64,000 bases of DNA from Acidimicrobiia bacterium (GCA_036556665.1 DATBIX010000029.1:6429-70428); one strand, 5' to 3'; counted from the stretch's first letter, positions 6,485 to 33,785 are shown. The notes: generated from the letters alone by a model not told the origin. Numbers and translations: made by a program.

Positions 6485-8104
6485 TCAGCCTTCCACGATC
6501 ACCTTTGCCCTCATCCAGGGGTGAGGAGTGCAGAAGTACTCGAACTCACCGACCTCGGTGAAGGTGTAGCTGAACGTGGCGCCCGTCTCGAGGAATCCTG
6601 AATCGAACGACCCGTCCACCGCAGTGACCGTGTGCATCTGACCCTCGTCGTCGTTGGTCCAGGTCACGGTGGTGCCGACACTCACCGTGAGCGTGTTGAC
6701 GGAGTAGTCCGCGGGGTCCTCCGTGGCTTCGAACTCGTCGGGTGCGCTCAGATCCTGGGTGGTCCATGCACCGGGGAGTATCGAGACGCTCTCACCGGTG
6801 GCCGCACCCTCGGTGGTCCCGGTCATCTCGTGACCGCCCGCTGCCGCCTCACCGGTCCCGGTGACATCCTCGAAGATCTCCGGATTCGGATCGCCCGAGA
6901 TGACTATCTGACCGATGGCTCCCTTGTCGACTGCCCGGGCCAGCGCGTGGTCGACGAGGACGACGGTCGAAGGGACCTGACCGATCAGCTCCACGACGGT
7001 CCCTCCGCCGGCCGGGACCAGAGTGGTCTGCGAGCCGCGCAGAGGTGGGTTCAAGAGAGCCGCCTCGGGATAGACCTTGTCCCAGTGGGACCCGATGGGG
7101 TGGAAGTTGGAGTCGAGGTTCAGGCCCGCGTTGATGAAGTACAGGCGGGCACGCTCGCCCACAGCCATCTGCAAGGCGTTGTCCCCGGTGAGGGAGCCGA
7201 CGGCTCCGTTGAACACGACGAACGTCGGAGCCTCGTCGGTCACCGCGGCGCGATCGAACTCGACGACACCCGGCTGCCGGTCGACGGTGTAGTACTCGGA
7301 CTGGACCATGTACCACTCGTGAGCCACTACGGGTAGCGGGTCCTCGGGGTCGACCAGGATCCCACCGAACATCCCGTGTGAGATATGGGCCGGGATGTCC
7401 CCGTAGGCGCAGTGGTACATGAAGAATCCCGGATAGAGGAGGCGGGCTTCGATGGTCTTGGTCTCACCGGGAGCGACTGTCGTCGCTTCGGCGCCGCCAC
7501 CCTGGCCGGTCACCGAGTGGAAGTCCACGTTGTGCGGGTTGTGACTCGTGGACGGGTTGGTGATGGTGAAGCGAAGGACATCGCCGACACGGGCCCTGAT
7601 CACCGGTCCCGGGGTGCCAACGACCAGGCCGTCGGGGCCATCGAGAAGGCGATATCCCCAGGTCTCGGTCTCGATCCCCGTGGCGGGGTCGATCGTCGAA
7701 ATCCCCTCGACCACCTCGAAGTGGACCTCGACGATCGCCTGGTCCGCCCGACCCGACGGGGGAGGCATCTGTGGTGCGATGGCGACGTTGACCTCGTCGG
7801 ACGGCACGACAGAGAGTTGGTCCTTGGGCATCAGCGTCGGCATGACGTCCTCCGGGAGCTCCACGGTCCCGGCTACGTCGCCCGATGCCAGATAGGCGTC
7901 GATCCTGTCCGAGACGATCGCGTCGTCCACGGAGTCACGACTGGCGGTGATCATGAGCGAGGCGACGCCTATGCCCACCGCGATGAGAGTCCCAACGATT
8001 CCGAGGGCCACCAGAGTGCCCAGTGTGTAATGCGGGTGTGGAGGTGGGGGCGGCGGCTGCGTGTGGCCGGGTTGGGCTTGTGCACGATCCACTGTCTGCG
8101 CCAT
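6485..8104 (-). CDS. nirK: copper-containing nitrite reductase with N-terminal TM anchor and C-terminal cupredoxin domain
   Basis: HNVDFH, YHCAYGDIPAHISHGMFG, NFHPIG; C-terminal HTVTA...YFCTPHPWM type-1 Cu site. Confidence 0.9.
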   Translation of the reverse strand: MAQTVDRAQAQPGHTQPPPPPPHPHYTLGTLVALGIVGTLIAVGIGVASLMITASRDSVDDAIVSDRIDAYLASGDVAGTVELPEDVMPTLMPKDQLSVVPSDEVNVAIAPQMPPPSGRADQAIVEVHFEVVEGISTIDPATGIETETWGYRLLDGPDGLVVGTPGPVIRARVGDVLRFTITNPSTSHNPHNVDFHSVTGQGGGAEATTVAPGETKTIEARLLYPGFFMYHCAYGDIPAHISHGMFGGILVDPEDPLPVVAHEWYMVQSEYYTVDRQPGVVEFDRAAVTDEAPTFVVFNGAVGSLTGDNALQMAVGERARLYFINAGLNLDSNFHPIGSHWDKVYPEAALLNPPLRGSQTTLVPAGGGTVVELIGQVPSTVVLVDHALARAVDKGAIGQIVISGDPNPEIFEDVTGTGEAAAGGHEMTGTTEGAATGESVSILPGAWTTQDLSAPDEFEATEDPADYSVNTLTVSVGTTVTWTNDDEGQMHTVTAVDGSFDSGFLETGATFSYTFTEVGEFEYFCTPHPWMRAKVIVEG

Positions 8105-8514
8105 CAGTTGCCTCCTTGGAGCTCGGTCTGCAACACGAAGACCTCGTCGAAGCCATCATCGAGAACGCGCCTGGCTTCCACCCAGATGGCGTGGATGGGA
8201 CAGGAGATGTCTCCAGGGCACGGGGCATCCCGGAGGACGCACCGCCCACTGGCCGAAGGCCCCTCGGTGGCTTCGATCACCTGGAGAAGACGGGCCTGGT
8301 GGGCCGACTCGGTGAGCTCATAGCCCCCTCCGGGTCCTCGCCGGGAAACGACCCAGCCTCCCCGGACCAGGCCCGCCATGACCTGGGGCAGGAACGAGGA
8401 CGTGGTACCGATCGAACGGGCGAGCTCGGCTCGGCCCAGCCTCCCACCGGCCTCGAGGAGTGCCCGCATAGCCTCGAGGGCGAGATCGGTGCGACGGCTG
8501 AATGTGATGTTCAT
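8104..8514 (-). CDS. Rrf2 family transcriptional regulator with three Cys (Fe-S type)
   Basis: SRRGPGGGYEL; C-x6-C-x5-C (CVLRDAPCPGDISC); ATG 8514; TGATG overlap with nirK. Confidence 0.9.
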   Translation of the reverse strand: MNITFSRRTDLALEAMRALLEAGGRLGRAELARSIGTTSSFLPQVMAGLVRGGWVVSRRGPGGGYELTESAHQARLLQVIEATEGPSASGRCVLRDAPCPGDISCPIHAIWVEARRVLDDGFDEVFVLQTELQGGN

Positions 8515-8540
8515 TAGTTGTTGAGTCGACAACTGATGAA
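8510..8540. promoter_or_regulatory. 12-7-12 inverted repeat over the Rrf2 start (candidate Rrf2 operator)
   Basis: TTCATTAGTTGT-TGAGTCG-ACAACTGATGAA, 11/12 arm match, AT-rich in a GC-rich genome. Confidence 0.6.
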
Positions 8541-8552
8541 TTCGATCCAGTA

Positions 8553-8566
8553 GGGCCATTGGTCCC
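8553..8566. promoter_or_regulatory. DosR/DevR-like box between rrf2-nirK and mgtE
   Basis: TA-GGGCC-ATTG-GTCCC-TA. Confidence 0.6.
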
Positions 8567-8628: not shown

Positions 8629-9624
8629 TTGGCCAGGAGCCAAGTCATCGAGTCTTCACCCCGGCCAGAGCCGACAAGCGAGAGCGCATTCGCCCTCGCC
8701 TCCACTCGTGTCCCCATCGCCGGTCGCCACGACACGGTGTCGGAGGTCCTCAGACGGCTCCGCGCCAATGGACGGCTCGAGACCATCGCCGACATCGCCG
8801 TGGTCGAAGACGGCCATCTGCTCGGGCTGGTCCCCATCGAGGATCTCCTCGCCGCTCCAGACGACGCGGTCGCCGCCACGCTGATGGATCCCGACCCGCC
8901 CCTGGTTCGGCCCGGTGTCGACCAGGAGGTGGCGGCCACCAAGGCGGTCACACGCGGTGAGAGCAGTCTGGCCGTGGTCGACGAGGACGGCCTCTTTCTC
9001 GGCCTGATCCCTCCGCATCGGATGCTCAGCGTCCTGCTGGAGGAGCATCGGGAGGACCTGGCTCGTCTCAGCGGGTACCTGCATCAGAGCGAGTCGGCGC
9101 GGTCAGCCAGCGAAGAAGGTGTCGCCCTTCGCCTTTGGCACAGGTTCCCCTGGCTGGTGGTAGGGCTGGCTTCGGCGATGGCGGCAGCCGTCATCGTCTC
9201 GGGCTTCGAACAGGGCCTCGCCTCCCACATCGAGCTGGTGTTCTTCATCCCGGGAATCGTCTACATCGCCGATGCGGTGGGAACGCAGACAGAGGTCCTG
9301 GTGGTGCGAGGGCTGTCCGTCGGCGTCTCGGTCCGCAGGATCGTCGGCAGGGAGCTTGCCACCGGATTGGCGCTCGGGCTCATCCTCGGCATCCTCGCCT
9401 TTCCCGCAGTGCTCTACTGGGTCGACCGGCCGGTGGCGTTGACGGTGTCGACCAGCATTTGGGCCGCATCGACCGTGGCGACCCTCGTCGCCATGGCCCT
9501 CCCCTGGCTGCTATCACGGGCCGGGTTGGACCCGGCTTTTGGGAGCGGGCCGCTGGCGACGGTGATCCAGGACCTGCTCTCCCTGGCCATCTACTTCGCC
9601 TTTGCCGGCCTGTTCGTGCTCTGA
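8629..9624 (+). CDS. mgtE: magnesium transporter MgtE-like (CBS pair + TM domain, no MgtE N-terminal domain)
   Basis: CBS repeats ([25 protein letters not shown]), [25 protein letters not shown]; start uncertain. Confidence 0.85.
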
Positions 9625-10626
9625 TCGGCCCGAGACGACGAGAACGGCGGCACCGGTCACCCTGTCCTGGGCCAGGTCGAGCAGGGCCCGACTCGCCTCG
9701 GAGAAGTCGTAGGCCACGGTGGTGGGCCTGATCGGGATGCGCGCGGCGATGTCGAGAAACTCACGGCCATCCTGACGGGTGTTGGCAGTGACCGACCTGA
9801 TCTGACGCTCCTCGAACAGCCATCGATACTCGAGCGCCGGGATATCGGTCAGGTGGATGCCGGCGATCGCCAACGTGCCGCCCCTGTGCAACGCCCGCAA
9901 AGCGGGCGGGACGAGATCCCCGACCGGGGCGAATAGGATGGCGGCATCGAGTCTCTCCGGAGGCTCGTCATACGCATCTCCCGCCGAGGAGCATCCCAGG
10001 TCCAGGGCCAGTCGGCGCGCCTCCTCAGACCGGGTCATCACATGCACCGTCGCCCCCTGGTAGATGGCGATCTGAGCGGTCAGATGAGCGGAGCCTCCGA
10101 ACCCGTAGATGCCGAGCCGTCCCCCTGGTGGCAACTCGGCACGGCGAAGGGCGCGATATCCGATGATCCCGGCGCAGAGCAAGGGAGCAGCCTCGTCATC
10201 GCTGAATACCTCCGGTATGGCATAGGCGTATCCCTCGGCCACGACCGCGTGCTCGGCGTATCCCCCGTCGGCGTCCCAGCCGGTGAACTCCGGTGACACA
10301 CAGAGGTTCTCAGAGCCGGCGAGGCACCACGGACAGGCGCCGCAGGTCTGCCTCAGCCAGGCGATCCCGACCCTGTCCCCGACTCCGAAGCGACTTGCCC
10401 CGGGGCCGATCGCATCGACCACTCCGACCACCTCGTGGCCCGGCACCACCCGGGCCCGATGGACTGGCAGATCACCCTCGACCACGTGGAGATCGGTGCG
10501 ACACACCCCGCACACCGAGACCCTGACCCTGATCTCGCCTCGACCCGGCGATGGCGTGGCCACGTCGGCGAGTTGGAGCGGTTCGCTCTCCATCGGTCCG
10601 GGGGTGTGAACCTGCCAGGCGCGCAT
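9514..10626 (-). CDS. zinc-binding alcohol dehydrogenase family protein
   Basis: [23 protein letters not shown]...ENLC, YGFGGSA. Confidence 0.92.
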
Positions 10627-10637
10627 GGTGCGGGAAA

Positions 10638-11588
10638 CTAGGAGCCGGTGTCTTTGCGTGCCCGCCCGGTGAGACCCTCTGTGAGCAAGGCCACCAGGAG
10701 CGCCTGCTCGGTGTGAAGCCGGTTCTCCGCCTGATCCCCGACCACCGATTGCCTCCCATCGAGAACGGCATCGACGACCTCGTCACCACGATGAGCCGGG
10801 AGACAATGCATGAAGATGGCGTTGGGCGAGGCCAGGTCCATCATCGCCTCATCGACCCGGAATGGGGCGAGCAGGGCCATTCGCCTCTCCTGGGGCTCCG
10901 GCGGGTCGCCAATGGGCCACACGTCGGTGTAGACGACATCGGCATCCTTGACCGCCTCGGCCGGGTCGTGACCGAGGTCGATGGTGGCTCCGGTTCGCCG
11001 GGCCACTGCCCTTGCCCGGTTCACCACTCCCCTGTCGGGAGCAAGTTCGGCCGGGGTGCCGACGACGAGGTGCAAACCCGCCAGGGCCGCAGCCTGGATG
11101 AGGCTGTGAGCCACATTGTTGCCATCGCCGAGGTAGGCGACCCGCCGGCCCTGCAGTGAGCCGAGGTGGTCTCTGACGGTGAGCATGTCCGCCAGAGCTT
11201 GACATGGGTGATGCATGTCGGTCAGGGCATTGATCACGGGGATCGTCGCCGCCGATGCGAATCTGGTCACTTGGCTGTGCTCGAAGGTTCCGATCACAGC
11301 AGCGCTCGCGTATCGGGACACGACCATGGCAGTGTCTTCGATCGTCTCAGCCCCGTCGAGCTGCAGCTCGGCGGGCCCAACGAATTCGGCCTCGCCGCCA
11401 AGGTGGGTGATGGCAGCGGCGAACGAGATGCGGGCCCGGGTGGAAGGCGTGGAGAAGTAGCAGAAGACGATCTCGTCGGCGAGAAGGCCGTCGCGCAAGT
11501 GCGGCATCTCACGGGCCTCCAGAGCTAGGTCGAGGAGCCGGTTGAGATCGTCCCGTGTGAGGTCGAGGACCTCGAGATAGTCCTTCAC
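10638..11588 (-). CDS. ornithine carbamoyltransferase-like transcarbamylase, divergent active site
   Basis: [23 protein letters not shown] present; STRA, IGTF and DVWPIG replace STRT, IRTF and SMG; GTG start 11588. Confidence 0.85.
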
Positions 11589-11665
11589 ATCCGTCCCTTG
11601 GTCGTGCCTTGCCAACGTAAGCCCGCACAGCTGCTGGGGGCCAGCGGCGTTTTCCTCCCCTACAT

Positions 11666-11679
11666 GGGACCTAATGCCC
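11666..11679. promoter_or_regulatory. DosR/DevR-like box between OTC-like gene and amino acid permease
   Basis: GGGAC-CTAA-TGCCC; AACGAT (11703-11708) 23 nt downstream. Confidence 0.55.
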
Positions 11680-11740
11680 TTGTCGCCGGGCGAGATCATC
11701 CGAACGATGAGGGGGTTGGGCCTGACAAGGAGGTGCTCTC

Positions 11741-13129
11741 GTGACCGTGCAGAGTCACACGAAGAGGCGAGCCCTGGGGCCTTGGTTGGCGACCGCCCTG
11801 GTCGTGGGCAACATGATCGGGTCGGGCGTCTTCCTTCTCCCCGCCGCGCTCGCCGAATACGGTGGTATCAGCCTCATCGGATGGCTGTTCACCGGTGCCG
11901 GAGCCGTGCTCCTGGCAATCGTCTTCGCCCGGCTGGGCCGGGCCTACCCGCGGACCGGCGGCCCCTATGAGTACAGCCGACGGGCCTTCGGGGAGTTCGT
12001 CGGGTTCCAGACGGCCTGGGGCTACTGGATCGCGATCTGGGCCGGGAACGCAGCCATCGCCGTGGCTTTCGTCGGCTACCTGGCAGTGTTCTGGGAGGGC
12101 TTGGCGGACAACGCCCTGCTCGCCGCGTTGGTGGCGGTTGGGGCCATCTGGCTGCTGACCTGGGTCAATGCCCTCGGGGTGAAGCAGGGCGGATGGGTCC
12201 AGGGGATCACGACGGTCTTGAAGGTCCTGCCCCTGCTCGCCATGGCGACAATCGGGCTCTTCTTCATGGACACCGCCAACTTCACCCCGTTCAACCTGAG
12301 CGGCGGCTCGGCTTTCGCCGCGGTGACTGCGGTGGCAGCCTTGACTCTCTGGGCATTCATCGGACTGGAGTCGGCCACTGTGCCGGCTGAAGACGTGCTC
12401 GATCCTGAGCGCAACATTCCGAGAGCGACCATCTGGGGGACGGTCGGCACGACGCTGATCTACATCCTCAGCACGGTTGCGGTGCTCGGGATCATCCCGG
12501 CGGCGACCCTTGTCAACTCGACGGCTCCTTTCGCCGATGCAGCGGAGTCTGCCTTTGGCGGCTGGGCGGGGACCCTGGTGGCGATCGGTGCCATCATCGC
12601 CACGTTCGGTGCGCTGAACGGCTGGATCCTGTTGCAGGCCCAGATCCCGATGGCGGCGGCTCGTGATCGGCTCTTTCCGAGCAGGTTTGGTCGCACCAAT
12701 CGAGCCGGCGCACCGGTGTTCGGGCTGGTGGTCTCCAGCGCCCTCGTGACGCTGCTGATGCTGGCCAACTACACCAAGGGGCTCGTCGAGCTGTTCACCT
12801 ACATGCTGCTCCTGGCAACGCTGACCACGCTGATCCCCTATGCCTATTCGGCGGCCGCCCAGCTGATGCTGTTCGTCACGGATCGGGAGAAGTTCTCCGG
12901 GATGCGCCTGGCCAAGGACTCCGTGATCGCCTCACTGGCGTTCGCCTACTCGGTTTGGGCCATCTACGGGGCGGGCCAGGAGGTTGTGTTCTACGGGCTG
13001 CTCCTCTTGCTTGCAGGGATCCCCATGTACGTGTGGGTGAAGTGGAGGAACAGGGTCCACGACGAGAAGCTGCCCGACGGGATCGTCATCCCCGACTCCC
13101 CTGCAGCGCTCTTCGACGGTTCGATCTGA
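11741..13129 (+). CDS. APC family basic amino acid antiporter (AdiC/ArcD-like)
   Basis: NMIGSGVFLLP, LWAFIGLESA, about 12 TM segments. Confidence 0.88.
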   Translation: MTVQSHTKRRALGPWLATALVVGNMIGSGVFLLPAALAEYGGISLIGWLFTGAGAVLLAIVFARLGRAYPRTGGPYEYSRRAFGEFVGFQTAWGYWIAIWAGNAAIAVAFVGYLAVFWEGLADNALLAALVAVGAIWLLTWVNALGVKQGGWVQGITTVLKVLPLLAMATIGLFFMDTANFTPFNLSGGSAFAAVTAVAALTLWAFIGLESATVPAEDVLDPERNIPRATIWGTVGTTLIYILSTVAVLGIIPAATLVNSTAPFADAAESAFGGWAGTLVAIGAIIATFGALNGWILLQAQIPMAAARDRLFPSRFGRTNRAGAPVFGLVVSSALVTLLMLANYTKGLVELFTYMLLLATLTTLIPYAYSAAAQLMLFVTDREKFSGMRLAKDSVIASLAFAYSVWAIYGAGQEVVFYGLLLLLAGIPMYVWVKWRNRVHDEKLPDGIVIPDSPAALFDGSI

Positions 13130-13140
13130 GAGGAGGAGAC

Positions 13141-14502
13141 ATGAAGAAGATCGTGATCATGGGAGCAGGGGGAAGGGACTTCCATGACTTCAACGTCGTT
13201 TATCGGGACGATCCCGACACACGTGTCATCGCGTTCACCGCAGCCCAGATCCCTGGCATTGCGGGTCGGGTGTACCCGCCCGCCCTGGCCGGCCCCCTCT
13301 ATCCCGAGGGGATACCGATCATGGACGAAGCCGACCTGGCCGATCTGATCGCGCGGGAGAAGGTGGATCAGGTGGTCTTCGCCTACAGCGACCTCTCCCA
13401 CGTCGAGGTGATGCACAAGGCCTCCCTGGCGCTGGCCCAGGGCGCAGACTTCGCCATGATCGGGCCGGCCCGGACCATGCTCTCCAGCACCAAGCCGGTC
13501 GTCGCCGTTTGCGCCGCCCGCACGGGTTGCGGGAAGAGCCAGACCAGCCGGTGGATCGGCAAGATCCTGACCGAGGCAGGCCTCGACGTCTCATTGATCC
13601 GCCACCCGATGCCCTACGGCAATCTGGAGCGGATGATGGTGCAGCGTTTCGAGACGATCGAGGACATCGATGCCTCGGACCCGACTATCGAGGAGCGTGA
13701 GGAGTACGAGGAGCCGGTGAGGGCAGGCCTCCTGATGTGGGCCGGAGTCGACTATGCCGAGATCCTGCACCGGGCCGAAGAGGAGTCCGACGTGATCGTC
13801 TGGGACGGCGGGAACAACGACTTCCCCTTCTATCGCCCGGATCTCTTCGTCACGGTGGTGGACCCCCTCCGGCCGGGTCACGAGCTGGAATACCACCCGG
13901 GCGAGATCAACGTGCGGATGGCGGACGTTGTCGTGATCAACAAGATCGACGTCTCCAACCCGCACGATGTGACGCTGGTCATGGAAAACGTCCGATCGGT
14001 CAACCCGAAGGCGACCATCGTCCAGACCGCCTCACCGGTTCGCCTGGAACCGGGACCCGAGTTGGCCGGGAAGAGGGTGCTGGTGGTGGAGGACGGCCCG
14101 ACCCTCACCCATGGCGGAATGCCTTTCGGGGCAGGGACAGTGGCCGCCCGTCACGCCGGGGTCGGAACCATCGTCGATCCGCGACCCCATGCCGTCGGCT
14201 CCATCGTCGACACGTTCTCCAGGTTCCCCATGCTGGGCCCCGTTCTCCCGGCAATGGGCTACGGCGAAGCGCAGCTTCAGGAGTTGGAGGCGACGATTCG
14301 CAACGTGCCGTGTGACGTCGTCGTGACCGGCACACCCATCGACCTGGGGCGGCTGATCGAGGCCGGGCACCCGGTGCGCCGGGCGGTCTACGAATCGGTG
14401 CAACTCGGTGAGCCGAGGCTCGAGGAGGTCCTGCGCGGTGTCATCGACGAGGCCTGGAATCGGAGGCAATCGACGGGCCCCTACGAGATAGCCGCCGGCT
14501 GA
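13141..14502 (+). CDS. cyclic 2,3-diphosphoglycerate synthetase-like P-loop enzyme; probable arginine synthetase (ArcE) homolog
   Basis: IMGAGGRDFHDFN, FTAAQIPGI, RTGCGKSQT, RHPMPYG, EEREEYE, WDGGNND, EDGPTLTHGGM; RBS AGGAGG. Confidence 0.8.
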   Translation: MKKIVIMGAGGRDFHDFNVVYRDDPDTRVIAFTAAQIPGIAGRVYPPALAGPLYPEGIPIMDEADLADLIAREKVDQVVFAYSDLSHVEVMHKASLALAQGADFAMIGPARTMLSSTKPVVAVCAARTGCGKSQTSRWIGKILTEAGLDVSLIRHPMPYGNLERMMVQRFETIEDIDASDPTIEEREEYEEPVRAGLLMWAGVDYAEILHRAEEESDVIVWDGGNNDFPFYRPDLFVTVVDPLRPGHELEYHPGEINVRMADVVVINKIDVSNPHDVTLVMENVRSVNPKATIVQTASPVRLEPGPELAGKRVLVVEDGPTLTHGGMPFGAGTVAARHAGVGTIVDPRPHAVGSIVDTFSRFPMLGPVLPAMGYGEAQLQELEATIRNVPCDVVVTGTPIDLGRLIEAGHPVRRAVYESVQLGEPRLEEVLRGVIDEAWNRRQSTGPYEIAAG

Positions 14503-14603
14503 AGTCGATCGACCCTGCAGGGCGGGCCGACCTCGTCGAGGCCTTCCGACGATGTGACTTTGTTCTCTGGCGAGCGGGAAAGCCCAGGACGGATCATTGG
14601 GTC

Positions 14604-15551
14604 ATGAGATACGGCACACGCACCCGTCGCTACGTCGTGTCCCTGGCGGCGATGTCTCTGATTCTCGCCGCCTGTGCCACCGAAGCAGGCGACGAATCCA
14701 CCACCAGCGAGGGTGCCACCAGCACCACCGCGGCGAGCACGACTACCGGCTCCGCCGAGACGTCGACCACGACAGTCCCATCAACGACGACCACCGCAAC
14801 GGAGACCTCCGGCTTTGTCGTCTACTTCATGCTCGAGGAGCTCGACGTGGACGACGGAACGCCGGGGCCATACCTGGTCCCGGTGTTTCGAGAGGCCCCT
14901 GAATCGGGCATCGAGGCAGAGACCGTGATGACGCTCCTGCTCGAAGGGCCCAATTCGGGTGAGACCTCCGGCGTCCCGCCGATCTCGACGGCTATCCCGG
15001 ACGGGACCTCGCTGCTCGGAGTGACGGTCGAATCCGGTCTGGCCACAGTCGATCTGAGTGGCGAGTACGACGACGGCGGAGGGAGCTTCGGCATGTTCGC
15101 CCGTCTCGCCCAGGTGGTCTACACCCTGACCCGCCTGCCCGATGTCGAGGAGGTTGCCTTCAGTGTCGATGGGACACCCGTTACCACGTTCTCGTCGGAG
15201 GGCATCGAGCTCGACGGGCCGCAGAGTCGGGAGGACTACTACGACCTGCTCCCGCCAGTCTTCGTCGACAGCCCGGCGTGGGGCCAGCCGGTCACCTCAC
15301 CAGTCTCGGTCTTCGGCCTTAGCAACGTCTTCGAGGCGGTGTCCCAGGTGATGCTGACCGACGATGACGGCCTGCCTCTCTTCGAGGATCACGTGATGGC
15401 AACGTGCGGCACCGGCTGCTGGGGCGAATGGTCTGTCGACATCACCTACGATGTCGACCGCGAACAGTTCGGGGCCCTGATCGTCTGGGAGATCTCGGCC
15501 AAGGACGGGAGCCAGGTCAACGTGCGCGAGTACCCGGTCATGCTCGGCTGA
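14604..15551 (+). CDS. GerMN-domain lipoprotein with C-terminal Ig-like (Gmad2-like) domain
   Basis: Lipobox ILAAC, Thr-rich linker, ATVDLSGEY...QVVYTLT GerMN motif, GLSNVFEA. Confidence 0.75.
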   Translation: MRYGTRTRRYVVSLAAMSLILAACATEAGDESTTSEGATSTTAASTTTGSAETSTTTVPSTTTTATETSGFVVYFMLEELDVDDGTPGPYLVPVFREAPESGIEAETVMTLLLEGPNSGETSGVPPISTAIPDGTSLLGVTVESGLATVDLSGEYDDGGGSFGMFARLAQVVYTLTRLPDVEEVAFSVDGTPVTTFSSEGIELDGPQSREDYYDLLPPVFVDSPAWGQPVTSPVSVFGLSNVFEAVSQVMLTDDDGLPLFEDHVMATCGTGCWGEWSVDITYDVDREQFGALIVWEISAKDGSQVNVREYPVMLG

Positions 15552-15570
15552 TACCGCCGACGCGCACAAA

Positions 15571-15584
15571 GGGCCGTTGGACTC
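15571..15584 (+). promoter_or_regulatory. DosR/DevR-like box upstream of hsp20
   Basis: GGGCC-GTTG-GACTC; CACCAT (15608-15613) 23 nt downstream. Confidence 0.5.
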
Positions 15585-15687
15585 TGGACGGGCACCGACC
15601 CGGGACGCACCATCGAATCAACAAGCCTCGGCCGCGTCGGGCCACGCCGGGTCAAAGGCATCAGGTCCGAGAGGGGAGGTGAACTGT

Positions 15688-16134
15688 ATGGAACTGAAGT
15701 TGTGGTCTCCGTTCCTCGATCTCGACAAGGAGTGGCGCTTCGACTTCCCGCGCCTCCTCGACTTCCCCATGCTGGGTCGTGAGTTGACCGGATTCGAATT
15801 CCGGCCGGCCATCGATCTGGTCAAGGAGGAGGGCGAGCTGGTGGCCACTATCGAGCTGCCCGGAATGGACCCGAAGGACATCGACGTCTCCATCGAGGGC
15901 GACTACCTGACCATCAAGGGCGAGAAGCACGAAGAGAAGGAGGTGTCCGAGGACGATCGCTACTTCCGTGAGCGGAGCTATGGCAAGTTCGAGCGGCGCT
16001 TCCGGCTCCCGGAAGGGACCAGCGCCGACAAGATGAGCGCGATGTACGACAAGGGCGTGCTCACACTGCATATCACGCTTCCGGAGGAGAAGCAGCTAGA
16101 GCCCCTCCACATCCCGATCGAGGCCAAGACCTGA
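15688..16134 (+). CDS. Hsp20/alpha-crystallin small heat shock protein
   Basis: ELPGMDPKDIDVSI, ERSYGKFERRFRLP, YDKGVLTLHI; RBS GGAGGT. Confidence 0.93.
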   Translation: MELKLWSPFLDLDKEWRFDFPRLLDFPMLGRELTGFEFRPAIDLVKEEGELVATIELPGMDPKDIDVSIEGDYLTIKGEKHEEKEVSEDDRYFRERSYGKFERRFRLPEGTSADKMSAMYDKGVLTLHITLPEEKQLEPLHIPIEAKT

Positions 16135-16149
16135 TCGACGATTTGCTCT

Positions 16150-16185
16150 GATGCGAGGAGATGAGAGTGCTCGTCTCCTCGCATC
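16150..16185 (+). terminator. 16-bp stem-loop after hsp20
   Basis: GATGCGAGGAGATGAG-AGTG-CTCGTCTCCTCGCATC; no U tract. Confidence 0.6.
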
Positions 16186-16221
16186 GCGTCTTCACCCCTG
16201 GCGCCCTCCTATGGTGTTGAG

Positions 16222-18984
16222 GTGCTCCCCGGGCCCTCACTGATGGTGCCGAGCCGGCAAGACCAGGCCGACGTAGCCGAGATGGCAACCGAGGAGGTCT
16301 ATCGGGCCCTCGGCACATCGCCGTCGGGTCTGACCCAGGAGGAGGCGGCCGAGCGGCTCGCCGTTCATGGCCCCAACACGATCAGCCCGATCTCACGGAG
16401 ACGCCTCGTATCGAGGCTCCTGTCGAACTTCGTGCACGTGATGGCGATTCTGCTTTGGGTTGGCGGCGCCGTTGCGTTTCTCGCCGATCTGCCGCAGCTC
16501 GGAGTGGCCATATGGGTGGTCAACGTGGTCAACGGCATCTTCAGCTTCTGGCAGGAGTTCAAGGCGGAAAAGGCGACGGAAGCCCTGCTCCGCCTTCTCC
16601 CCTCCACGGCCACGGTCCTTCGGGAAGCGGTGCTCGAGCAGGTGGATGCCACCGCACTCGTACCCGGCGACGTGGTCTTCATCGAAGAGGGTGACCGCAT
16701 CTCGGCCGACGGCCGGCTGGTGGAGCACGTGGCGCTGCGCGTCGACCAATCCACCCTCACCGGCGAGTCACGCTTGGTCCGCAAGGCCTCGGATCCGGTC
16801 GACACGGCAGGAAGGAGCCGCCTCGAGCTGCCCAATCTGGTGTTTGCCGGTACCACGGTGGGGTCGGGGCGGGGAAAGCTGGTCGTCACCTCGACCGGGG
16901 CCGGGACCGAGCTCGGCGGCATCGCCGCCCTGACCGGGTCACTGGCCGACACCCCCAGCCCCCTCCAGCGCGAGTTGAGGAGGGTCAGTCTCACTGTCAG
17001 CATCGTGGCGATCGGTGTCGGAGTGGTCTTCTTCATCCTGGCGCTCGCCCTGGGTGGTTTGCCCCTGGCCACCGGCTTCGTCTTCACCCTGGGGATGATC
17101 GTCGCCTTCGTCCCCGAGGGGCTCCTCCCCACCGTGACCCTCGCTCTCGCGATGGGCACCCAGAGAATGGCGGCACGCAACGCCTTGGTGAGGAAGCTGT
17201 CGGCGGTGGAGACCCTGGGGTGCACAACGGTGATTTGCACCGACAAGACCGGCACACTGACTCAGAACGAGATGACCGTCCGCTCGGCCCTCGTCGGCGG
17301 TCGGCGATATGAATTCGAGGGAGTCGGGTACCAGCCTGAGGGTCGGATCCATCCCGGGCCGGACGATGGCCTGGTCACACTTCTGGCCACCGCGGCTCGC
17401 GCCTCCAATGCGCGCCTGGTGCACAACGATGGAGACACCGGGAGACTGACCGTGGTCGGCGACCCGACCGAGGGCGCAATCCTCACCGCCGCAATGAAGG
17501 CGGGAATCGATCTCGACGTCCTGAGCTCGGATGCTCCCCGCGTCGCCGAATGGCCGTTCGACCCGGTTAGGAAGCGAATGAGCTCCGTGGCGCGCATGGG
17601 CGGGGAGTTGGTGGTCGCGACGAAGGGGGCTCCCGCCGAGCTCCTCGAGCGCTGCTCCTCACTCCATTCCGCCGATGGAACGCTGGCCCTCGAAGTGGAC
17701 GACCGAAAAGGGATCATCCAGGCGGTGAATGCGGCTGCGGCCGAGGGCCTGAGAGTCCTGGGGGTTGCACGTCGGGTGATCGACCATCTCCCCGATGAGC
17801 GCGAGGACTTCGAGATCGACCTCGAGTTCATCGGGCTGGTCGCCATGCACGACCCGCCGAGACCCGAGGTCGAGGCGGCCATCGCCAGTTGTAGGAGCGC
17901 GGGCATCCGGATCGTGATGATCACAGGGGACTATGGGATAACCGCTGAAGCGATCGGGCGCAGGATCGGCATGGTCGGTGAGGGCCAGGTGAGGGTGGTC
18001 AACGGCGACGAGATGGACGCCATCGATGACGCCGCCCTCGGCGCGATCCTGGACGATGAGGTGATCTTCGCCAGGGTGACCCCTTCTCACAAGATGCGGG
18101 TGGTCGCCGCTCTCCAGGATCGCGGTGCGGTGGTTGCGGTCACCGGGGACGGGGTCAACGATGCCCCGGCTCTCAAACTGGCCGACATCGGGGTCGCCAT
18201 GGGGCAGTCCGGCACCGACGTCGCCCGGGAGGCAGCCGACATCATCCTGCTCGACGACAACTTCGCATCGATAGTCGCCGCCATCGAGGAAGGGCGGGCC
18301 GTCTATGACAACATCAAGAAGTTCACGACCTACATCCTCACGTCCAACGTGCCCGAAGCCGTCCCGTTCGTGGTCTTCGCATTCTCCGGTGGGCGAATCC
18401 CGCTCGCATTGGGCGTGATGCACATCCTCGCCATCGACCTGGGCACCGACCTCGCCCCTGCCCTCGCCTTGGGGGCGGAGCCACCCGAGCCTGGTGTGAT
18501 GGACCGGCCACCCCGCTCGCTCGATGCCCGACTCATCGACCGGCCCCTACTTGCCCGCGCCTATCTCCTGCTCGGGCCGGTCCAGGCGCTCTTTGTCATG
18601 ATTGCCTTCTTCGGGGCCTACCGCCTGCAGGGTGTCGAGGACTGGTCCAACCTGGCCTCGTCGGGGACGATCTATCTCGCCGCCACGGCAATGGCGCTGG
18701 CAGGGGTGGTGACCACGCAAATCGGCAATCTCTTCGCCCAGCGATCGGCTCGGGTCTCGCTGCGCCGTATCGGTCTGGGAGGCAATCGCCTTCTCTGGTG
18801 GGGGATACTCTCCGAAGTGGTGGTCATTCTCCTCATCGTCTATCTGCCCCCGCTGCAGAGGGTCATCGGCACGGCTCCGTTCCCGCCGATCGGGTGGGCC
18901 TGGCTGCTTCTCGGAGTCCCCCTGCTGCCGCTGGCCGACGAAATCAGGAAAGCGCTCACCGCCCACCGGGGAAGAGCACGATGA
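16222..18984 (+). CDS. cation-translocating P-type ATPase, P2C (Na+/K+- or H+/K+-ATPase)-like
   Basis: TGES, DKTGTLT, GDGVND; IVAFVPEGLLPTVT, YILTSNVPEAVPF, ILAIDLGTD; start may be ATG 16243 or 16282. Confidence 0.88.
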   Translation: MLPGPSLMVPSRQDQADVAEMATEEVYRALGTSPSGLTQEEAAERLAVHGPNTISPISRRRLVSRLLSNFVHVMAILLWVGGAVAFLADLPQLGVAIWVVNVVNGIFSFWQEFKAEKATEALLRLLPSTATVLREAVLEQVDATALVPGDVVFIEEGDRISADGRLVEHVALRVDQSTLTGESRLVRKASDPVDTAGRSRLELPNLVFAGTTVGSGRGKLVVTSTGAGTELGGIAALTGSLADTPSPLQRELRRVSLTVSIVAIGVGVVFFILALALGGLPLATGFVFTLGMIVAFVPEGLLPTVTLALAMGTQRMAARNALVRKLSAVETLGCTTVICTDKTGTLTQNEMTVRSALVGGRRYEFEGVGYQPEGRIHPGPDDGLVTLLATAARASNARLVHNDGDTGRLTVVGDPTEGAILTAAMKAGIDLDVLSSDAPRVAEWPFDPVRKRMSSVARMGGELVVATKGAPAELLERCSSLHSADGTLALEVDDRKGIIQAVNAAAAEGLRVLGVARRVIDHLPDEREDFEIDLEFIGLVAMHDPPRPEVEAAIASCRSAGIRIVMITGDYGITAEAIGRRIGMVGEGQVRVVNGDEMDAIDDAALGAILDDEVIFARVTPSHKMRVVAALQDRGAVVAVTGDGVNDAPALKLADIGVAMGQSGTDVAREAADIILLDDNFASIVAAIEEGRAVYDNIKKFTTYILTSNVPEAVPFVVFAFSGGRIPLALGVMHILAIDLGTDLAPALALGAEPPEPGVMDRPPRSLDARLIDRPLLARAYLLLGPVQALFVMIAFFGAYRLQGVEDWSNLASSGTIYLAATAMALAGVVTTQIGNLFAQRSARVSLRRIGLGGNRLLWWGILSEVVVILLIVYLPPLQRVIGTAPFPPIGWAWLLLGVPLLPLADEIRKALTAHRGRAR

Positions 18985-23986: not shown

Positions 23987-24373
23987 TCAGGGCTGACGGG
24001 CCTCGACTTCGGCTGCGATCGCATCGAGATCGCCGGCAACCGGCTCGTGGGTCAGCACCTTGAGCCCCTTGACCACCTCCGGGTACCTCTCCGCCTGCCC
24101 GGGTCGGATGACGACACGGATCGGGATGTCGCTGCTGAGCGACTCCTTGTATCGGGAGAGGATCGCCCGGTGCTGGGCTCGATCGAGGTCGAGCTCGAAC
24201 ACGATCCCTTGGGCGCCCTCGGCCAGCTCACAACCGGCGCCGGTGAGGATCGGGCAAATCTGGCCCTCTCCCGGCCCGGGGCAGGTCATCACCCGGTGGC
24301 CGAGTTGTTCCAGGAATCGGTGATCCGTCGGCTCGCTGCCACCCGGGATATCGAAGAGGATGTAGTCGTCCAT
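23987..24373 (-). CDS. hypothetical protein with CPGP-x5-CP-x6-C motif
   Basis: ATG 24373 with GGAGGT RBS; TCPGPGEGQICPILTGAGC. Confidence 0.7.
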   Translation of the reverse strand: MDDYILFDIPGGSEPTDHRFLEQLGHRVMTCPGPGEGQICPILTGAGCELAEGAQGIVFELDLDRAQHRAILSRYKESLSSDIPIRVVIRPGQAERYPEVVKGLKVLTHEPVAGDLDAIAAEVEARQP

Positions 24374-24419
24374 CGCACCTCCTTTGACCCAGCATCCCGT
24401 CACCGGCGTTGGGCCACCA

Positions 24420-24433
24420 GGGGATTAAGTCCC
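24420..24433 (-). promoter_or_regulatory. DosR/DevR-like box upstream of the Cys-motif hypothetical gene
   Basis: GGGGA-TTAA-GTCCC; minus-strand GATGCT (24396-24391) 23 nt downstream. Confidence 0.6.
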
Positions 24434-24567: not shown

Positions 24568-26304
24568 ATGAGACCAGCGCTGTCCGCACAGGCCCGGCCC
24601 TGGCACAGCCACTACGACGATGGAGTGCCGCCGAGCCTCAGGTATCCCGACACCACACTGGACGAGGTGCTGAGGCAAACCGCCACTCGGTTTCCCGAGC
24701 AACCCGCCCTCGTCTTCTTTGGCAACCGGATCACCTACCACCGGCTCGACGAGCTGGTCGACCGGATGGCGAGCAGCCTCCAGGCGATGGGGGTGCGACC
24801 CGGTGATCGGGTCGCCGTGTTCATGCCCAATTGCCCGCAGATGGTCATCTCCTACTACGGGATCTGGCGCGCCGGCGGCGTGGTCGTCCCGATCAACCCG
24901 CTCTACACCGGCGCCGAGTTCGAGCGACAGGTCAATGATTCCGGCGCCACCACAGCCATAGTGCTCAGCGCCTTCTACAACCGGGTCAAGGCCGTGCGAG
25001 ACCGCACGGGCGTGAACAAGGTCGTGGTGACCAACATCAAGGAGTACTTCCCTCCCCTGCTGCGCGCCTTGTTCACCATCGCCAAGGAGAAGAAGGAGGG
25101 CCATCGCGTCCGCCTGCCCGGGAGCGATGACGTGCTCGCCTTTCCACGGGCCCTTCAGCTCGGGTCCGACAAACCGCTCGCCTCGTTCTCACGTCCGGAC
25201 GAGACCGCCGCCCTCCTCTACACCGGTGGGACCACCGGGATCCCCAAGGGAGCCGTGCTCTCCCACCGCAACCTGCTGTGCAACGCACAGCAGGTAGGGG
25301 TGTGGGCCACCGGGCTGGATGATGGTGCCGAGGTCATGATGTCAGCCCTCCCCCTGTCTCACTGTTACGCCATGACCGTGTGCATGAACCTGTCGATCCA
25401 GCGTGGCTGGGCCCAGGTCCTCCTGCCCGACCCGAGGGATCTCTCCCGCCTGCTCTCTGAGATACAGGGGAACCGCGTGACCATCCTGCCCGGCGTGCCC
25501 ACCCTGTACGCGGCGATCGCCAACCATCCCGATGTCCGAGCCGGCAAGTACGACGTCCGCTCGATCGAGGTATGCATCAGCGGTGCAGCGGGGCTCCCCT
25601 CCGAGGTGCAAGCCGAGTTCCAGCGGATCACCGGCGGGCGGCTCGTCGAGGGCTATGGCCTAACCGAGGCATCTCCCGTCACCCACGCCAACCCCATCGG
25701 AAGTGGGGGGCGGACCGGGACGATCGGTCTACCGCTTCCCGACACCAGATGCAAGATCGTCGATGTGGAGACCCAGTCGGAGGAGATGGAGCCGGGTCGA
25801 CCCGGGATCCTCTGCATCTCCGGACCTCAGGTCATGTCCGGCTACTGGAACCGTGCCGACGAGACGGAGTCGACGCTGCGGGTTGACGACGACGGCGTGT
25901 CCTGGCTCCATACCGGGGACGTGGCCGAGATGAGCCCCGACGGCTACTTCCGCATCATCGATCGGCAGAAGGACATGATCCTCGCCGCCGGCGGCCTGAA
26001 CGTCTATCCCCGTGAGATCGAAGACGTCCTGTACCAGCATCCCAAGGTCCTGCAGGCCGCGGTCATCGGGGTGCCGGTCGGAGGGATGGACCAGCGGGCC
26101 AAGGCGTTCGTGGTGCTGCGCGAGGGTCAGAAGGCCACCGAGGAGGAGATCCTCGGCTACCTGGGCACGATGCTGGCCAGGTTCAAGGTCCCGAAGTCAG
26201 TCGAGTTCCGCGAAGAGTTGCCTCTTGCCTTCACCGGCAAGGTGCTGCGACGGGTGCTGGCCGAGGAGGAGCGATCCAAGGCCGATCGGGAGGAAGTCTC
26301 CTGA
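24568..26304 (+). CDS. fadD: long-chain fatty acid--CoA ligase
   Basis: YTGGTTGIPKG, EGYGLTE, WLHTGD, DRQKDMI, VYPREIE. Confidence 0.92.
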   Translation: MRPALSAQARPWHSHYDDGVPPSLRYPDTTLDEVLRQTATRFPEQPALVFFGNRITYHRLDELVDRMASSLQAMGVRPGDRVAVFMPNCPQMVISYYGIWRAGGVVVPINPLYTGAEFERQVNDSGATTAIVLSAFYNRVKAVRDRTGVNKVVVTNIKEYFPPLLRALFTIAKEKKEGHRVRLPGSDDVLAFPRALQLGSDKPLASFSRPDETAALLYTGGTTGIPKGAVLSHRNLLCNAQQVGVWATGLDDGAEVMMSALPLSHCYAMTVCMNLSIQRGWAQVLLPDPRDLSRLLSEIQGNRVTILPGVPTLYAAIANHPDVRAGKYDVRSIEVCISGAAGLPSEVQAEFQRITGGRLVEGYGLTEASPVTHANPIGSGGRTGTIGLPLPDTRCKIVDVETQSEEMEPGRPGILCISGPQVMSGYWNRADETESTLRVDDDGVSWLHTGDVAEMSPDGYFRIIDRQKDMILAAGGLNVYPREIEDVLYQHPKVLQAAVIGVPVGGMDQRAKAFVVLREGQKATEEEILGYLGTMLARFKVPKSVEFREELPLAFTGKVLRRVLAEEERSKADREEVS

Positions 26305-28635: not shown

Positions 28636-29735
<1,100 letters not shown>

Positions 29736-29739
<4 letters not shown>

Positions 29740-30194
29740 ACCTGGAATCGCTGCGCCGAGACAGCGAGCTCCTCCGGTCGCTCGACGAGGCCCAGGTCGC
29801 TTTCCTGGAGTCGGTCTCGGAGGAGACGAACGTAGTTGCAGGCGAGACCCTGTTCGAGGAAGGCGGCCAGGCCGACCGTTTCTACGTGGTCTCGGTAGGA
29901 AAGGTCGCTCTCGAGATGACCAGCCCCGGACGTGCGCCCATGGTCATCCAGACCCTGGGCCCGGGCGAGCTCGTCGGTGTGAGCTGGCTGTTCCCGCCCC
30001 ATCGATGGAATTGGCGCGCCCGCGCCGTGGTCGACACCAAACTGGCCCGATTCGATGCGGCAGAGGTGCGCCGTCGATGCGAGGAGGACGCCGGGCTCCG
30101 AAGCGCGCTCCTTGCGGTCGTGGCCGAGGAGGTGGTGGGTCGTCTTCATCGAGCCCGGATCCAACTGCTCGACCTCTATCGGAGCGGCTCATGA
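29736..30194 (+). CDS. stand-alone cyclic nucleotide-binding domain protein
   Basis: LFEEGGQADRFYVV, LGPGELVG; no HTH. Confidence 0.85.
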
Positions 30195-31047
30195 CAGCCC
30201 AGCTCACACCGCCGGGCCCCGCAGCCGTCCCGGAGGCGATGCTGCCCCGGCCCTTTCGCGTCCTGTCCAAGACACATGAGACCGACGACACCGTCACCCT
30301 CGAGCTCGCCTCGGACGATGCGGCGCCGCTCGAGTTCAGCCCGGGCCAGTTCACCATGCTCTATTGCTTCGGGATCGGCGAGGTGCCGATATCCATCTCC
30401 GGAGACCCCCACCACCCGGCCACCCTGACTCACACCGTGAGAGCCGTGGGTGCGGTGACCGAGGCCATCGCCCGGTTGCAGGCCGGTGACTACGTGGGGA
30501 TCCGGGGCCCATACGGATCGGGCTGGCCGGTCGATCGGGCACAGGGAAGAGACCTGGTCTTGGTCGGCGGGGGAATCGGCCTGGCTCCGCTCCGCCCGGC
30601 GGTCCTCGACGTGCTGAGGAGGAGGGAGGAGTTTGGATCGGTCTCGCTGGTCTACGGCGCCCGCACCCCGGCCGATCTCCTCTATGCCGACGAGCTGCAC
30701 AGCTGGCGAAGCCGTTTCGACTTCCAGGTGGAGGTCACGGTCGACCGCTCCGAAGGCGGATGGCTCGGCGACGTGGGGGTCGTCACCGGGCTTCTTCCCC
30801 GAGTCGATCACGATCCTGCCGGCACGGTGGCCATGCTCTGTGGGCCGGAGATCATGATGAAGGTGGTGGCCACTCAGCTGGTCAACCGCGGAGTCACGGG
30901 CTCCGACATCTACCTCAGCCTGGAGCGCAACATGAAATGCGCCATCGGGCTCTGTGGGCATTGCCAGTTCGGGCCGGACTTCGTCTGCTGGGCAGGTCCC
31001 GTCCTTCCCTTCGAGAGGGTCGAGGCAAGACTCAGGGTGCCGGAGCT

Positions 31048-31051
<4 letters not shown>
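30191..31051 (+). CDS. hydG: group 3b hydrogenase gamma subunit (FAD/NAD(P), 2Fe-2S)
   Basis: [35 protein letters not shown]...C. Confidence 0.9.
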
Positions 31052-31813
<762 letters not shown>

Positions 31814-31824
<11 letters not shown>

Positions 31825-33109
31825 ACGCGAGATCGAGGTCGGCTACCTGGCCCGGGTCGAGGGCGAGGGGGCCATGTACTTGAAGCTCGATGGGGATGAG
31901 GTCCTCGACCTCGAGTTCCGGATCTTCGAGCCGCCCCGATTCTTCGAGGCATTCCTCCAGGGCCGCCGCTTCTCCGAGGCACCCGACATAACCGCGCGCA
32001 TCTGCGGGATCTGCCCCATCGCATACCAGACCAGTGCCTGCAACGCCATGGAGGTGGCCGCAGGAGCCCGGCTCGTGGGAGGTCTCCGCGACCTGAGACG
32101 CCTCATCTACTGCGGCGAGTGGATAGAGAGCCACGCCCTGCACGTCTTCTTCCTGCATGCTCCTGACTTCCTCGGCTACGAGAGCGCGATAGCCATGGCG
32201 GGCGAGCATCCCGATCGGGTCGCCACCGGGCTGCGGCTCAAGAAGGTGGGAAACGGGATCATGACCCTTCTCGGAGGACGCGAGATACACCCGATCAACG
32301 TGCGGGTCGGTGGGTTCTACCGGGTCCCGACGAGAGCCGACCTGCTCGCCCTCGTCCCCGACCTCGAATGGGCCCTGGAAGCAGCCATCGAAACGGTCGA
32401 CTGGGTCTCGAGCCTGCCTTTCCCCGACTTCGAGCGTGACTACGAGTTCGTCTCACTGAGCCATCCCGACGAATACCCGATTCACGAGGGCCGGATCGTC
32501 TCCAATCGCGGCCTCGACATCGGAGTCGATGAATGGGAGGAGCATTTCGAGGAAAGTCACGTCGCTTGGTCAAACGCGCTGCACGCCCGCCGGCAACCGG
32601 GAGGAACGGCCTACCACGTCGGACCGATGGCCCGTTACTCGCTCAACTTCGAGAAGCTGACCCCCCGGGCCGGCGCGGCTGCCCTCGCTGCCGGCCTCGA
32701 GGAAACCTGCCGCAACCCGTTCCGCAGCATCGTGGTACGGGCGGTCGAGATCGCTTTTGCGTGCGAGGAGGCCCTGCGCCTCATCGACGGCTACTCCATG
32801 CCTGACAGCCCGTTTATCCACGCCGAGCCGCGCTCGACCGTCGGCCACGGCGCCTCCGAGGCGCCACGCGGGCTGCTCTATCACCGTTACACGATCGATG
32901 GAGAGGGATTGATCACCGACGCACACATCGTCCCGCCCACTTCCCAGAACCAGCTGAGCATCGAGGACGACCTGCGCGCCTATGTGCCCGGGCGGGCCGG
33001 TCTCCCCGATGATCGCCTCCAGTGGGAGTTGGAGCAGGCGATTCGCTGCTACGACCCGTGCATCTCCTGCGCAACGCATTTCCTCGACCTCACCGTGGAG
33101 AGACAGTGA
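31814..33109 (+). CDS. hydA: group 3b [NiFe]-hydrogenase large (alpha) subunit
   Basis: RVEGEG, L1 [11 protein letters not shown]2 [10 protein letters not shown] plus short cleavable tail. Confidence 0.93.
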
Positions 33110-33784: not shown

Positions 33785-33785
33785 G

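Follow-up and report, generated by a model that had tools for sequence, protein, structure and literature searches.

An ArcE-type locus for probable arginine catabolism, with an AdiC-like antiporter and an altered ornithine transcarbamylase, in an uncultured Acidimicrobiia bacterium

Genes and control region of the locus

In a 64-kb stretch of DNA, called the window below, from what the names on the best matches indicate is an uncultured Acidimicrobiia bacterium, we analysed three genes at positions 10638–14502 that together resemble an arginine catabolic module built around ArcE, the arginine synthetase of Thermococcus kodakarensis. An earlier note on this DNA had described an antiporter gene directly upstream of a gene for a P-loop enzyme, both divergent from a gene resembling that of ornithine transcarbamylase (OTC), and our analysis agrees with this arrangement and its coordinates. 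Domain scans covered about 65 open reading frames (ORFs) in the window. Six JGI metagenome contigs carry the same locus at 98–100% identity, and the population is represented in JGI samples 3300036848, 3300061734, 3300049587/8, 3300054114 and 3300036836. The related loci, referred to by L numbers, include the best 80 loci of a scan of a genome collection with an 11-sequence alignment, none of them from Thermococcales. The features are as follows.

10638–11588 (ORF continuing to an ATG at 11699), minus strand: arcB-type OTC homologue, 316 amino acids from a GTG start, with the Pfam domains OTCace_N (PF02729) and OTCace (PF00185)
11589–11740, no strand assigned: divergent control region common to the OTC gene and the predicted antiporter-arcE operon, from comparison of orthologous intergenic regions
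11666–11680, plus strand: 15-bp imperfect palindrome GGGACCTAATGCCCT, the "DosR-like" box, conserved in the promoters of relatives
11741–13129, plus strand: AdiC-like basic amino acid/polyamine antiporter of the APC superfamily, 462 amino acids, with the Pfam domain AA_permease_2
13141–14502, plus strand: predicted ArcE-family arginine synthetase homologue, a P-loop protein (COG2403, "predicted GTPase") of 453 amino acids, identified by its archaeal homologues and fold
24419–24433, minus strand: second copy of the box, GGGACTTAATCCCCT, between a hypothetical gene (23987–24403, minus) and an AMP-binding enzyme gene (24568–26304, plus)

The start of the OTC gene is most likely the GTG at 11588, and the extension to the ATG at 11699 is probably an over-extension, because the orthologues in the related loci L087, L090 and L007 begin at the same point (312 amino acids) and the 110 bases upstream hold the conserved non-coding box. 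The orthologous OTCs begin MKD(F/Y)LEV. The antiporter gene starts with a GTG preceded by an AAGGAGG ribosome-binding site, and arcE starts with the ATG at 13141, which stands behind GAGGAGGAG, 11 nt beyond the antiporter stop codon; homologues of 453 amino acids begin at the same point. A longer ORF at 12955–14502, which would add 62 amino acids at the N-terminus, was discarded in favour of this ATG on the position of the ribosome-binding site and on the starts of the homologues. Because the gap between the two genes is only 11 nt and has a ribosome-binding site, the antiporter gene and arcE form one predicted operon. A scan of 10500–14800 for sigma-70 promoters and terminators gave nothing informative.

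The earlier note had also stated that genes for arginine deiminase (ADI) and carbamate kinase are missing from the window. We likewise found no ADI or AA_kinase Pfam domain in the approximately 65 ORFs spanning the 64 kb, and a tblastn search for carbamate kinase over the same window, at E ≤ 1, returned no match. The domain scans of the window's ORFs also revealed no other arg biosynthesis genes close to the locus.

The divergent control region is about 150 bp long, and within it the box GGGACCTAATGCCCT (11666–11679/80) occurs exactly in the orthologous promoters of L087/L088 and L090–L092, and with one mismatch in L007. Apart from the box and the ribosome-binding sites, the intergenic DNA of L087, L090 and L007 has diverged. 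The box is thus very likely a real operator, as predicted from its conservation while the flanking intergenic DNA diverged. As a match with 2 mismatches to the 14-mer core GGGACNNNNGTCCC, the box is not rarer than chance: the window has 64 such matches, compared with 102 in shuffles. At the arc promoter there is no site with 6 or fewer mismatches out of 20 to TTSGGGACTWWAGTCCCSAA, which we take to be the 20-mer DosR consensus. The published DosR consensus exists in a stringent form, GGGACTTNNGNCCCT, and a weak form, RRGNCYWNNGNMM, and the box has two mismatches to the former and one to the latter, the absent base being the G of the right half-site (PMC6448022). The second copy of the box, GGGACTTAATCCCCT, has a single mismatch to the stringent consensus and lies upstream of the AMP-binding enzyme gene. 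It may share a regulator or regulon with the arc locus, and it is only suggestive because the pattern was defined after the sites had been seen.

With regard to the regulator, the domain scans detected neither a protein combining REC and GerE domains nor a HisKA_3 kinase in the window, and thus no pair of the DosR/DosS type. The sole GerE protein in the window is a MalT-like STAND regulator (47735–49951). Relatives carry a REC+GerE/HisKA_3 pair or an HD+GerE protein close to arcE. The box, an imperfect palindrome of the GGGAC type, is probably an operator at which a DosR-like regulator of the GerE/NarL type would act. The "DosR-like box" of the earlier note thus holds insofar as a box is present and conserved in orthologous promoters, but its match to DosR is imperfect. 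The control by hypoxia or DosR that the note proposed is not established, and the window encodes no DosR-type regulator.

The P-loop enzyme and its antiporter

In T. kodakarensis, TK2200 (ArcE, arginine synthetase) catalyses the reversible reaction Arg + ADP + Pi <-> Cit + NH3 + ATP (PMC11032458), as the earlier note had stated. The authors of that study describe ArcE as widespread in bacteria including Actinomycetota, as often annotated as a putative GTPase, and as having low similarity to cyclic 2,3-diphosphoglycerate synthase (cDPGS); arcE is sometimes close to arcB or arcC, and Hyperthermus and Pyrodictium are genera named as arcE carriers (PMC11032458). They further report that the structure of LpxK (4EHY) superimposes on that of ArcE, and that cDPGS is only distantly related (PMC11032458). 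As stand-ins for TK2200 we used Hyperthermus and Pyrodictium proteins, which were found by a protein search with a Thermoproteota homologue as query. The window protein is 50% identical to that of Hyperthermus butylicus (P0418) over 419 amino acids, with a score of 408 bits, and 49% identical to that of Pyrodictium occultum (P0454) over 412 amino acids. It also retains residues that are invariant in the family: TGxGK (128–132), WDGGNND (221–227), K268, and D318/P320/H324/G325. Its JGI name is "predicted GTPase", which is an annotation mentioned in the ArcE study (PMC11032458).

The similarity to cDPGS is far more limited. A phmmer comparison with solved cDPGS structures gave 37 bits over 108 amino acids (9sxb) and 17 bits (8oru/8ork), confined to residues 211–327 (about 110 residues), and the NCBIfam cDPGS model did not match the protein. 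Pfam and NCBIfam together returned solely a marginal CobW/HypB P-loop match. With an AlphaFold2 model (pLDDT 89.2) as the query, Foldseek placed cDPGS (8ORU) first, with a TM-score of 0.47 and 14% identity (E=6e-19), followed by LpxK (4EHX/4EHY) with TMt values of 0.59–0.62; across the structural alignments, the identity to cDPGS is 14–15%. Thus, cDPGS from Methanothermus fervidus (PDB 8ORK/8ORU; also 9SXB) is the closest solved fold and has the P-loop core in common with the window enzyme, but the sequence match is local and the genomic contexts are wholly different. By homology, we assign the P-loop enzyme to the ArcE (arginine synthetase) family and not to cDPGS. The ArcE-like assignment of the earlier note therefore stands, since the protein groups with ArcE homologues rather than with cDPGS.

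This family is very large, with at least 8,000 candidates in a word-indexed search and 3,519 representatives in HMMER (50% clustering, E up to 0.001). It is also well conserved, with 55–60% identity between the window protein and proteins from Bathyarchaeia or Chloroflexota. NCBI names many of its members, including the H. butylicus protein, "cyclic 2,3-diphosphoglycerate synthase". This name is probably a propagated misannotation, given that true cDPGS is merely 14–15% identical.

The genes surrounding arcE elsewhere in the family indicate the pathway to which it belongs. Partners within 3 kb of arcE were counted in species-representative loci, of which 52 extend 3 kb or more beyond arcE in both directions. 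An OTC gene is present in 15 of the 52 and a carbamate kinase gene in 16; both occur in 12, and either or both in 19. In a Gaiellaceae locus (L019), the row is complete, consisting of antiporter, arcE, arcB (OTC) and arcC (carbamate kinase). Moreover, a metagenome protein of 766 amino acids (P0125) is a natural fusion of carbamate kinase and ArcE. Its residues 3–309 match the carbamate kinase model NF009007 with 314 bits (cut-off 266), and its ArcE domain (residues 329–759) is 52% identical to the window protein. These observations support a genomic tie between the ArcE family and the genes for OTC and carbamate kinase. In L087, L090 and L007, which are close relatives, the locus has no adjacent carbamate kinase gene, as in the window.

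The antiporter aligns with the AdiC structures of Escherichia coli over 431 residues, with a score of 296 bits. Equivalents of AdiC-site residues are aligned throughout: the GSG motif of transmembrane helix 1, N101 (in GN), W202/I205/E208 (in FIGLES) and W293 (in NGW). Since these equivalents of the substrate site are conserved, a guanidinium-bearing substrate is plausible. All NCBIfam scores are below their cut-offs, namely AdiC (377 vs 574), TIGR00905 (362 vs 409), PotE (288 vs 409) and the ArcD-type model (240 vs 591). Orthologues with 57–89% identity are encoded directly upstream of arcE in L087, L009, L010, L019 and L021. This arrangement, which recurs across several loci of Actinomycetota, among them L019 with its complete operon, supports a dedicated role for the predicted antiporter in the ArcE pathway. 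Its counter-substrate is more likely to be ornithine or citrulline, because the antiporter is paired with ArcE.

The altered ornithine transcarbamylase

The third gene product scores above the cut-offs of two OTC models (NF001986, 349 vs 306; TIGR00658, 331 vs 281), about 30–36 bits under the L087 orthologue. We compared it with its 119 nearest homologues outside its own 99% cluster, which are 56–81% identical to it. The window OTC departs from these at 7 of the 90 columns with conservation of 97% or more, compared with a mean of 0.57 departures in 113 homologues (Poisson p ~2e-6). All seven departures fall in the SxRT, R141-equivalent, RGE and DxxxSMG motifs. The changes are the following.

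Directly before STRTR: K to T
Within STRTR: T to A, giving STRAR
Arg equivalent to human R141 and E. coli R106: R to G (AAVIGTFEH in the window protein)
RGE motif: R to G and G to A
DxxxSMG motif: Ser to Pro, Met to Ile and a one-residue deletion, giving DVW-PIG

All 119 homologues have STRTR, RGE, the R141-equivalent Arg and the Met of SMG, and 118 of the 119 have the Ser of SMG. Four elements are kept in the window protein: HPxQ (as HHPCQ), HCLP (as HCLPA), the D of DxxxSMG, and ENRLH. Established OTC structures assign the SMG loop a role in binding the carboxylate of ornithine. In human OTC, SxRT and R141 belong to the phosphate/carbamoyl-phosphate site and DxxxSMG is the ornithine loop, and the substitution S267R, which differs from the Ser-to-Pro change seen here, lowers the efficiency for ornithine about 1,800-fold (PMC12090190). 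The "altered OTC" of the earlier note is confirmed, and the alteration is more severe than could be seen at that point. Human OTC deficiency alleles affect R141, S267 and K88, and the window OTC is substituted at the equivalents of K88, T93, R141, S267 and M268. Unlike the human alleles, these substitutions have become fixed jointly in a bacterial population in nature, and the gene is otherwise conserved and intact.

In the nearest relative, L087/L088, whose ArcE and antiporter are 89% identical to those of the window, the OTC is fully canonical (STRTR, VIRTF and DVWVSMG). The changes in the window OTC are thus read from this comparison as recent and lineage-specific. Among the population contigs, the polymorphic codons of the OTC gene are nonsynonymous in 6 cases and synonymous in 2, compared with 7 and 16 in neighbouring genes (Fisher p=0.043), a test that rests on 8 OTC codons and on contigs picked for identical ArcE. 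The residues involved suggest that the window OTC is probably catalytically impaired, having lost its activity as a transcarbamylase not long ago; a newly acquired role without catalysis is less likely. The gene is not a plain pseudogene, as its frame is intact in six population contigs and the ratio of nonsynonymous to synonymous substitution rates (dN/dS) is 0.10 relative to L087, a comparison in which dS is saturated. Assignment as a putrescine, N-acetylornithine or YgeW-type carbamoyltransferase was ruled out on NCBIfam scores; for example, the putrescine carbamoyltransferase model gave 261 (cut-off 500).

The ornithine loop is also altered in a second lineage of OTCs linked to an antiporter and arcE. 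The sequences are YTDAWTPMGD in L009 (7433–8381) and YTGVWTPMGD in P0365, with D changed to A or G and Ser to Pro. P0365 differs, too, at a near-invariant His just past HCLP (HCLPAY). Both the OTC and the carbamate kinase of L009 are split between two frames, which could reflect frameshifts or long-read errors.

The predicted pathway, its alternatives and its setting

Considering the three genes together, we think it probable, with real reservations, that this is an ArcE-type arginine catabolic locus, in which the antiporter and ArcE are accompanied by an impaired OTC and one ATP is gained per arginine, with citrulline as the end point. The AdiC-like antiporter, presumably co-transcribed with arcE, would import arginine against a product. 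ArcE would then convert arginine, ADP and Pi to citrulline, NH3 and ATP, an activity shown for TK2200 and assigned here by homology. In related genomes, an arcB-type OTC and carbamate kinase would carry the route further, to ornithine, CO2 and NH3 with the gain of another ATP. In the window population, the OTC appears to have lost its ligands for phosphate and carbamoyl phosphate (the Thr of SxRT, the R141-equivalent Arg and the Lys before STRTR) as well as the SMG loop that binds ornithine. Constraint on it seems to be relaxed, and catalysis is probably impaired. With a probable defect in the OTC step and no nearby gene for carbamate kinase, the local route would most likely yield one ATP per arginine and end at citrulline. 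Citrulline would leave in exchange for arginine, or go to an OTC or other enzymes encoded elsewhere.

Several points weigh against this interpretation. The tie between the window enzyme and TK2200 is indirect, running through the Hyperthermus and Pyrodictium homologues, and all characterisation of ArcE to date concerns a hyperthermophilic archaeon rather than any bacterium. The ArcE reaction is reversible, and its direction here is deduced from the linkage to the antiporter alone. The specificity of the antiporter is not readable from its sequence, as every NCBIfam equivalog is below cut-off. For the OTC, the polymorphism test has the narrow basis given above, the frame is intact with low dN/dS, and the NCBIfam OTC cut-offs are passed, such that some activity or another function is possible. 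Finally, the window covers only 64 kb, and carbamate kinase, a second OTC or even ADI could be encoded elsewhere in the genome.

The best-surviving alternative, which we consider unlikely, is that the full three-step pathway operates. The variant OTC would then phosphorolyse citrulline, the carrier would exchange arginine for ornithine, and carbamoyl phosphate would pass to a distant carbamate kinase, to pyrimidine synthesis or to [NiFe]-hydrogenase maturation. This would fit the intact OTC frame, the dN/dS of 0.10, the OTC model scores above cut-off and the retention of HPxQ, HCLP, the D of DxxxSMG and ENRLH, as well as the relatives L087, L090 and L007 that also have no adjacent carbamate kinase. 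Furthermore, the window holds a [NiFe]-hydrogenase cluster, and the T. kodakarensis pathway mainly supplies carbamoyl phosphate, with arcC being dispensable (PMC13260591). However, the Thr of SxRT, the R141-equivalent Arg, the preceding Lys and the Ser and Met of SMG, all near-invariant in the 119 relatives, have been lost, and one residue has been deleted. Replacement of just the SMG serine of human OTC, albeit by a different residue (S267R), has the roughly 1,800-fold cost mentioned above, and the excess of nonsynonymous polymorphism in the OTC gene also speaks against a working enzyme.

A more far-reaching proposal builds on the citrulline-ending route that we favour. Here, the lineage would have cut the pathway to a two-protein module yielding one ATP, with an arginine/citrulline exchanger and ArcE as the sole catalytic step; arcB would be kept under purifying selection as a non-catalytic protein (a citrulline/ornithine sensor or an ArcE partner), and the whole would be under a DosR-like low-oxygen regulator. 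With all its parts combined, we regard this proposal as doubtful.

It is improbable that the locus is biosynthetic, with ArcE forming arginine out of citrulline, ATP and NH3 and the transporter bringing in citrulline or another precursor. ArcE is indeed reversible (K ~10) and supports growth of T. kodakarensis on citrulline (PMC11032458), and OTC is normally a biosynthetic enzyme too. On the other hand, arcE is predicted to share a transcript with the gene of an AdiC-like exchanger that retains the residues for guanidinium binding, and the family as a whole is linked to carbamate kinase, a catabolic marker. In addition, the OTC that would feed in citrulline is itself the degenerate component, and no other arg biosynthesis genes are nearby.

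Slightly more improbable still is the use of another guanidino or ureido substrate by ArcE and the altered OTC, for instance the conversion of agmatine to carbamoylputrescine with the carrier as an agmatine/putrescine exchanger. The earlier note had raised another guanidino substrate as an option. An arginine/agmatine antiporter is the top transporter match, the Ser-to-Pro change in the SMG loop takes away a backbone NH contact to the carboxylate of ornithine, and a similar Ser-to-Pro change occurs in the second OTC lineage linked to ArcE and an antiporter (L009/P0365). However, the window ArcE is 89% identical to that of L087, which is paired with a canonical OTC, and the putrescine carbamoyltransferase score is far below its cut-off. 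Since carbamoyl phosphate is bound by this Thr and this Arg in every transcarbamylase, their absence looks like loss of function rather than re-targeting, and the option is disfavoured. Last, that the P-loop protein is a genuine cDPGS is scarcely credible: this is the NCBI product name of many homologues and the top structural neighbour, but the similarity (17–37 bits over about 110 residues, 14–15% identity, TM-score 0.47, no NCBIfam cDPGS match) falls far short of the 408 bits to an archaeal homologue of the ArcE family, and the context is one of OTC, carbamate kinase and an amino-acid antiporter.

Among known systems, the T. kodakarensis pathway (ArcE TK2200, ArcB TK0871 and ArcC TK2158; PMC11032458, PMC13260591) is related through its first step, which uses a P-loop protein of the same family, about 450 amino acids long and distantly related to cDPGS and LpxK. 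Also as in that pathway, arcE in the window is linked to an arcB-type OTC gene, and ADI is not nearby. In contrast to it, the window locus is bacterial (Acidimicrobiia), arcE is apparently co-transcribed with an AdiC-like antiporter gene, arcC is not found within 64 kb, the arcB partner has lost residues for carbamoyl phosphate and ornithine, and the divergent promoter contains an operator-like box. The ADI pathway, arcABC(D), has a shared logic, with arginine import by exchange, formation of citrulline, and then OTC and carbamate kinase for ATP. However, the first step predicted for the window is not hydrolytic (there is no ArcA) and would conserve energy as ATP, and the antiporter is AdiC-like and well below the curated ArcD equivalog. 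The antiporter shares the GSG motif and the equivalents of N101, W202, E208 and W293 with E. coli AdiC (PDB 3L1L, 5J4I), but it has no arginine decarboxylase nearby and is under the AdiC equivalog cut-off. The pathway, its occurrence in Actinomycetota and the clustering of arcE, arcB and arcC were already published in 2024 (PMC11032458). The local novelties are the antiporter-arcE operon, which is conserved in this clade, the operator, which is likewise conserved, and the degenerate state of the OTC.

Further genes in the window surround the locus. Neighbours of arcE at 14604–18984 that recur in L087, L090 and the P0007 contig encode a Germane/Gmad2 lipoprotein, Hsp20 and cation P-type ATPases, and in relatives one P-type ATPase is fused to hemerythrin. 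This set looks like a conserved stress island. On the other side, a zinc alcohol dehydrogenase gene (TIGR02822; 9514–10626, minus; an ORF of 370 amino acids) overlaps the 3′ end of an MgtE-like gene (8629–9624). Its codon 334 is polymorphic for stop and Arg among the population contigs, and one contig has a form of 322 amino acids. A gene for a NirK-like multicopper/cupredoxin protein (6485–8104, minus) adjoins that of an Rrf2-family regulator (8104–8559, minus), and at the start of the latter there is a near-perfect palindrome, GGGCCATTGGTCCC (8553–8566).

A soluble [NiFe]-hydrogenase cluster (29661–34016, plus) encodes a cNMP-binding protein, an NAD-binding/Fe-S diaphorase-like subunit, small (Oxidored_q6) and large subunits, a HycI-type maturation protease and HypC. 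Maturation of [NiFe] hydrogenases requires carbamoyl phosphate (PMC13260591), and this compound could link the hydrogenase cluster to the arc locus. The Hsp20, the P-type ATPases, the NirK-like protein with its Rrf2 regulator and the [NiFe]-hydrogenase are compatible with a stress or low-oxygen island, which in itself proves nothing.

As a clean bacterial example of ArcE, provided with its own AdiC-like exchanger and conserved operator, the window locus could serve to test ArcE-driven substrate-level ATP formation in mesophilic Actinomycetota of soil and sediment. For the family, the annotations "cyclic 2,3-diphosphoglycerate synthase" and "predicted GTPase" are very likely wrong or uninformative. 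Finally, the degenerate OTC is encoded beside an intact ArcE, and a relative with 89% identity in ArcE has a canonical OTC orthologue; comparing the two could show whether the ArcE step alone may serve as an energy module, and how fast the downstream part of the pathway may be lost.

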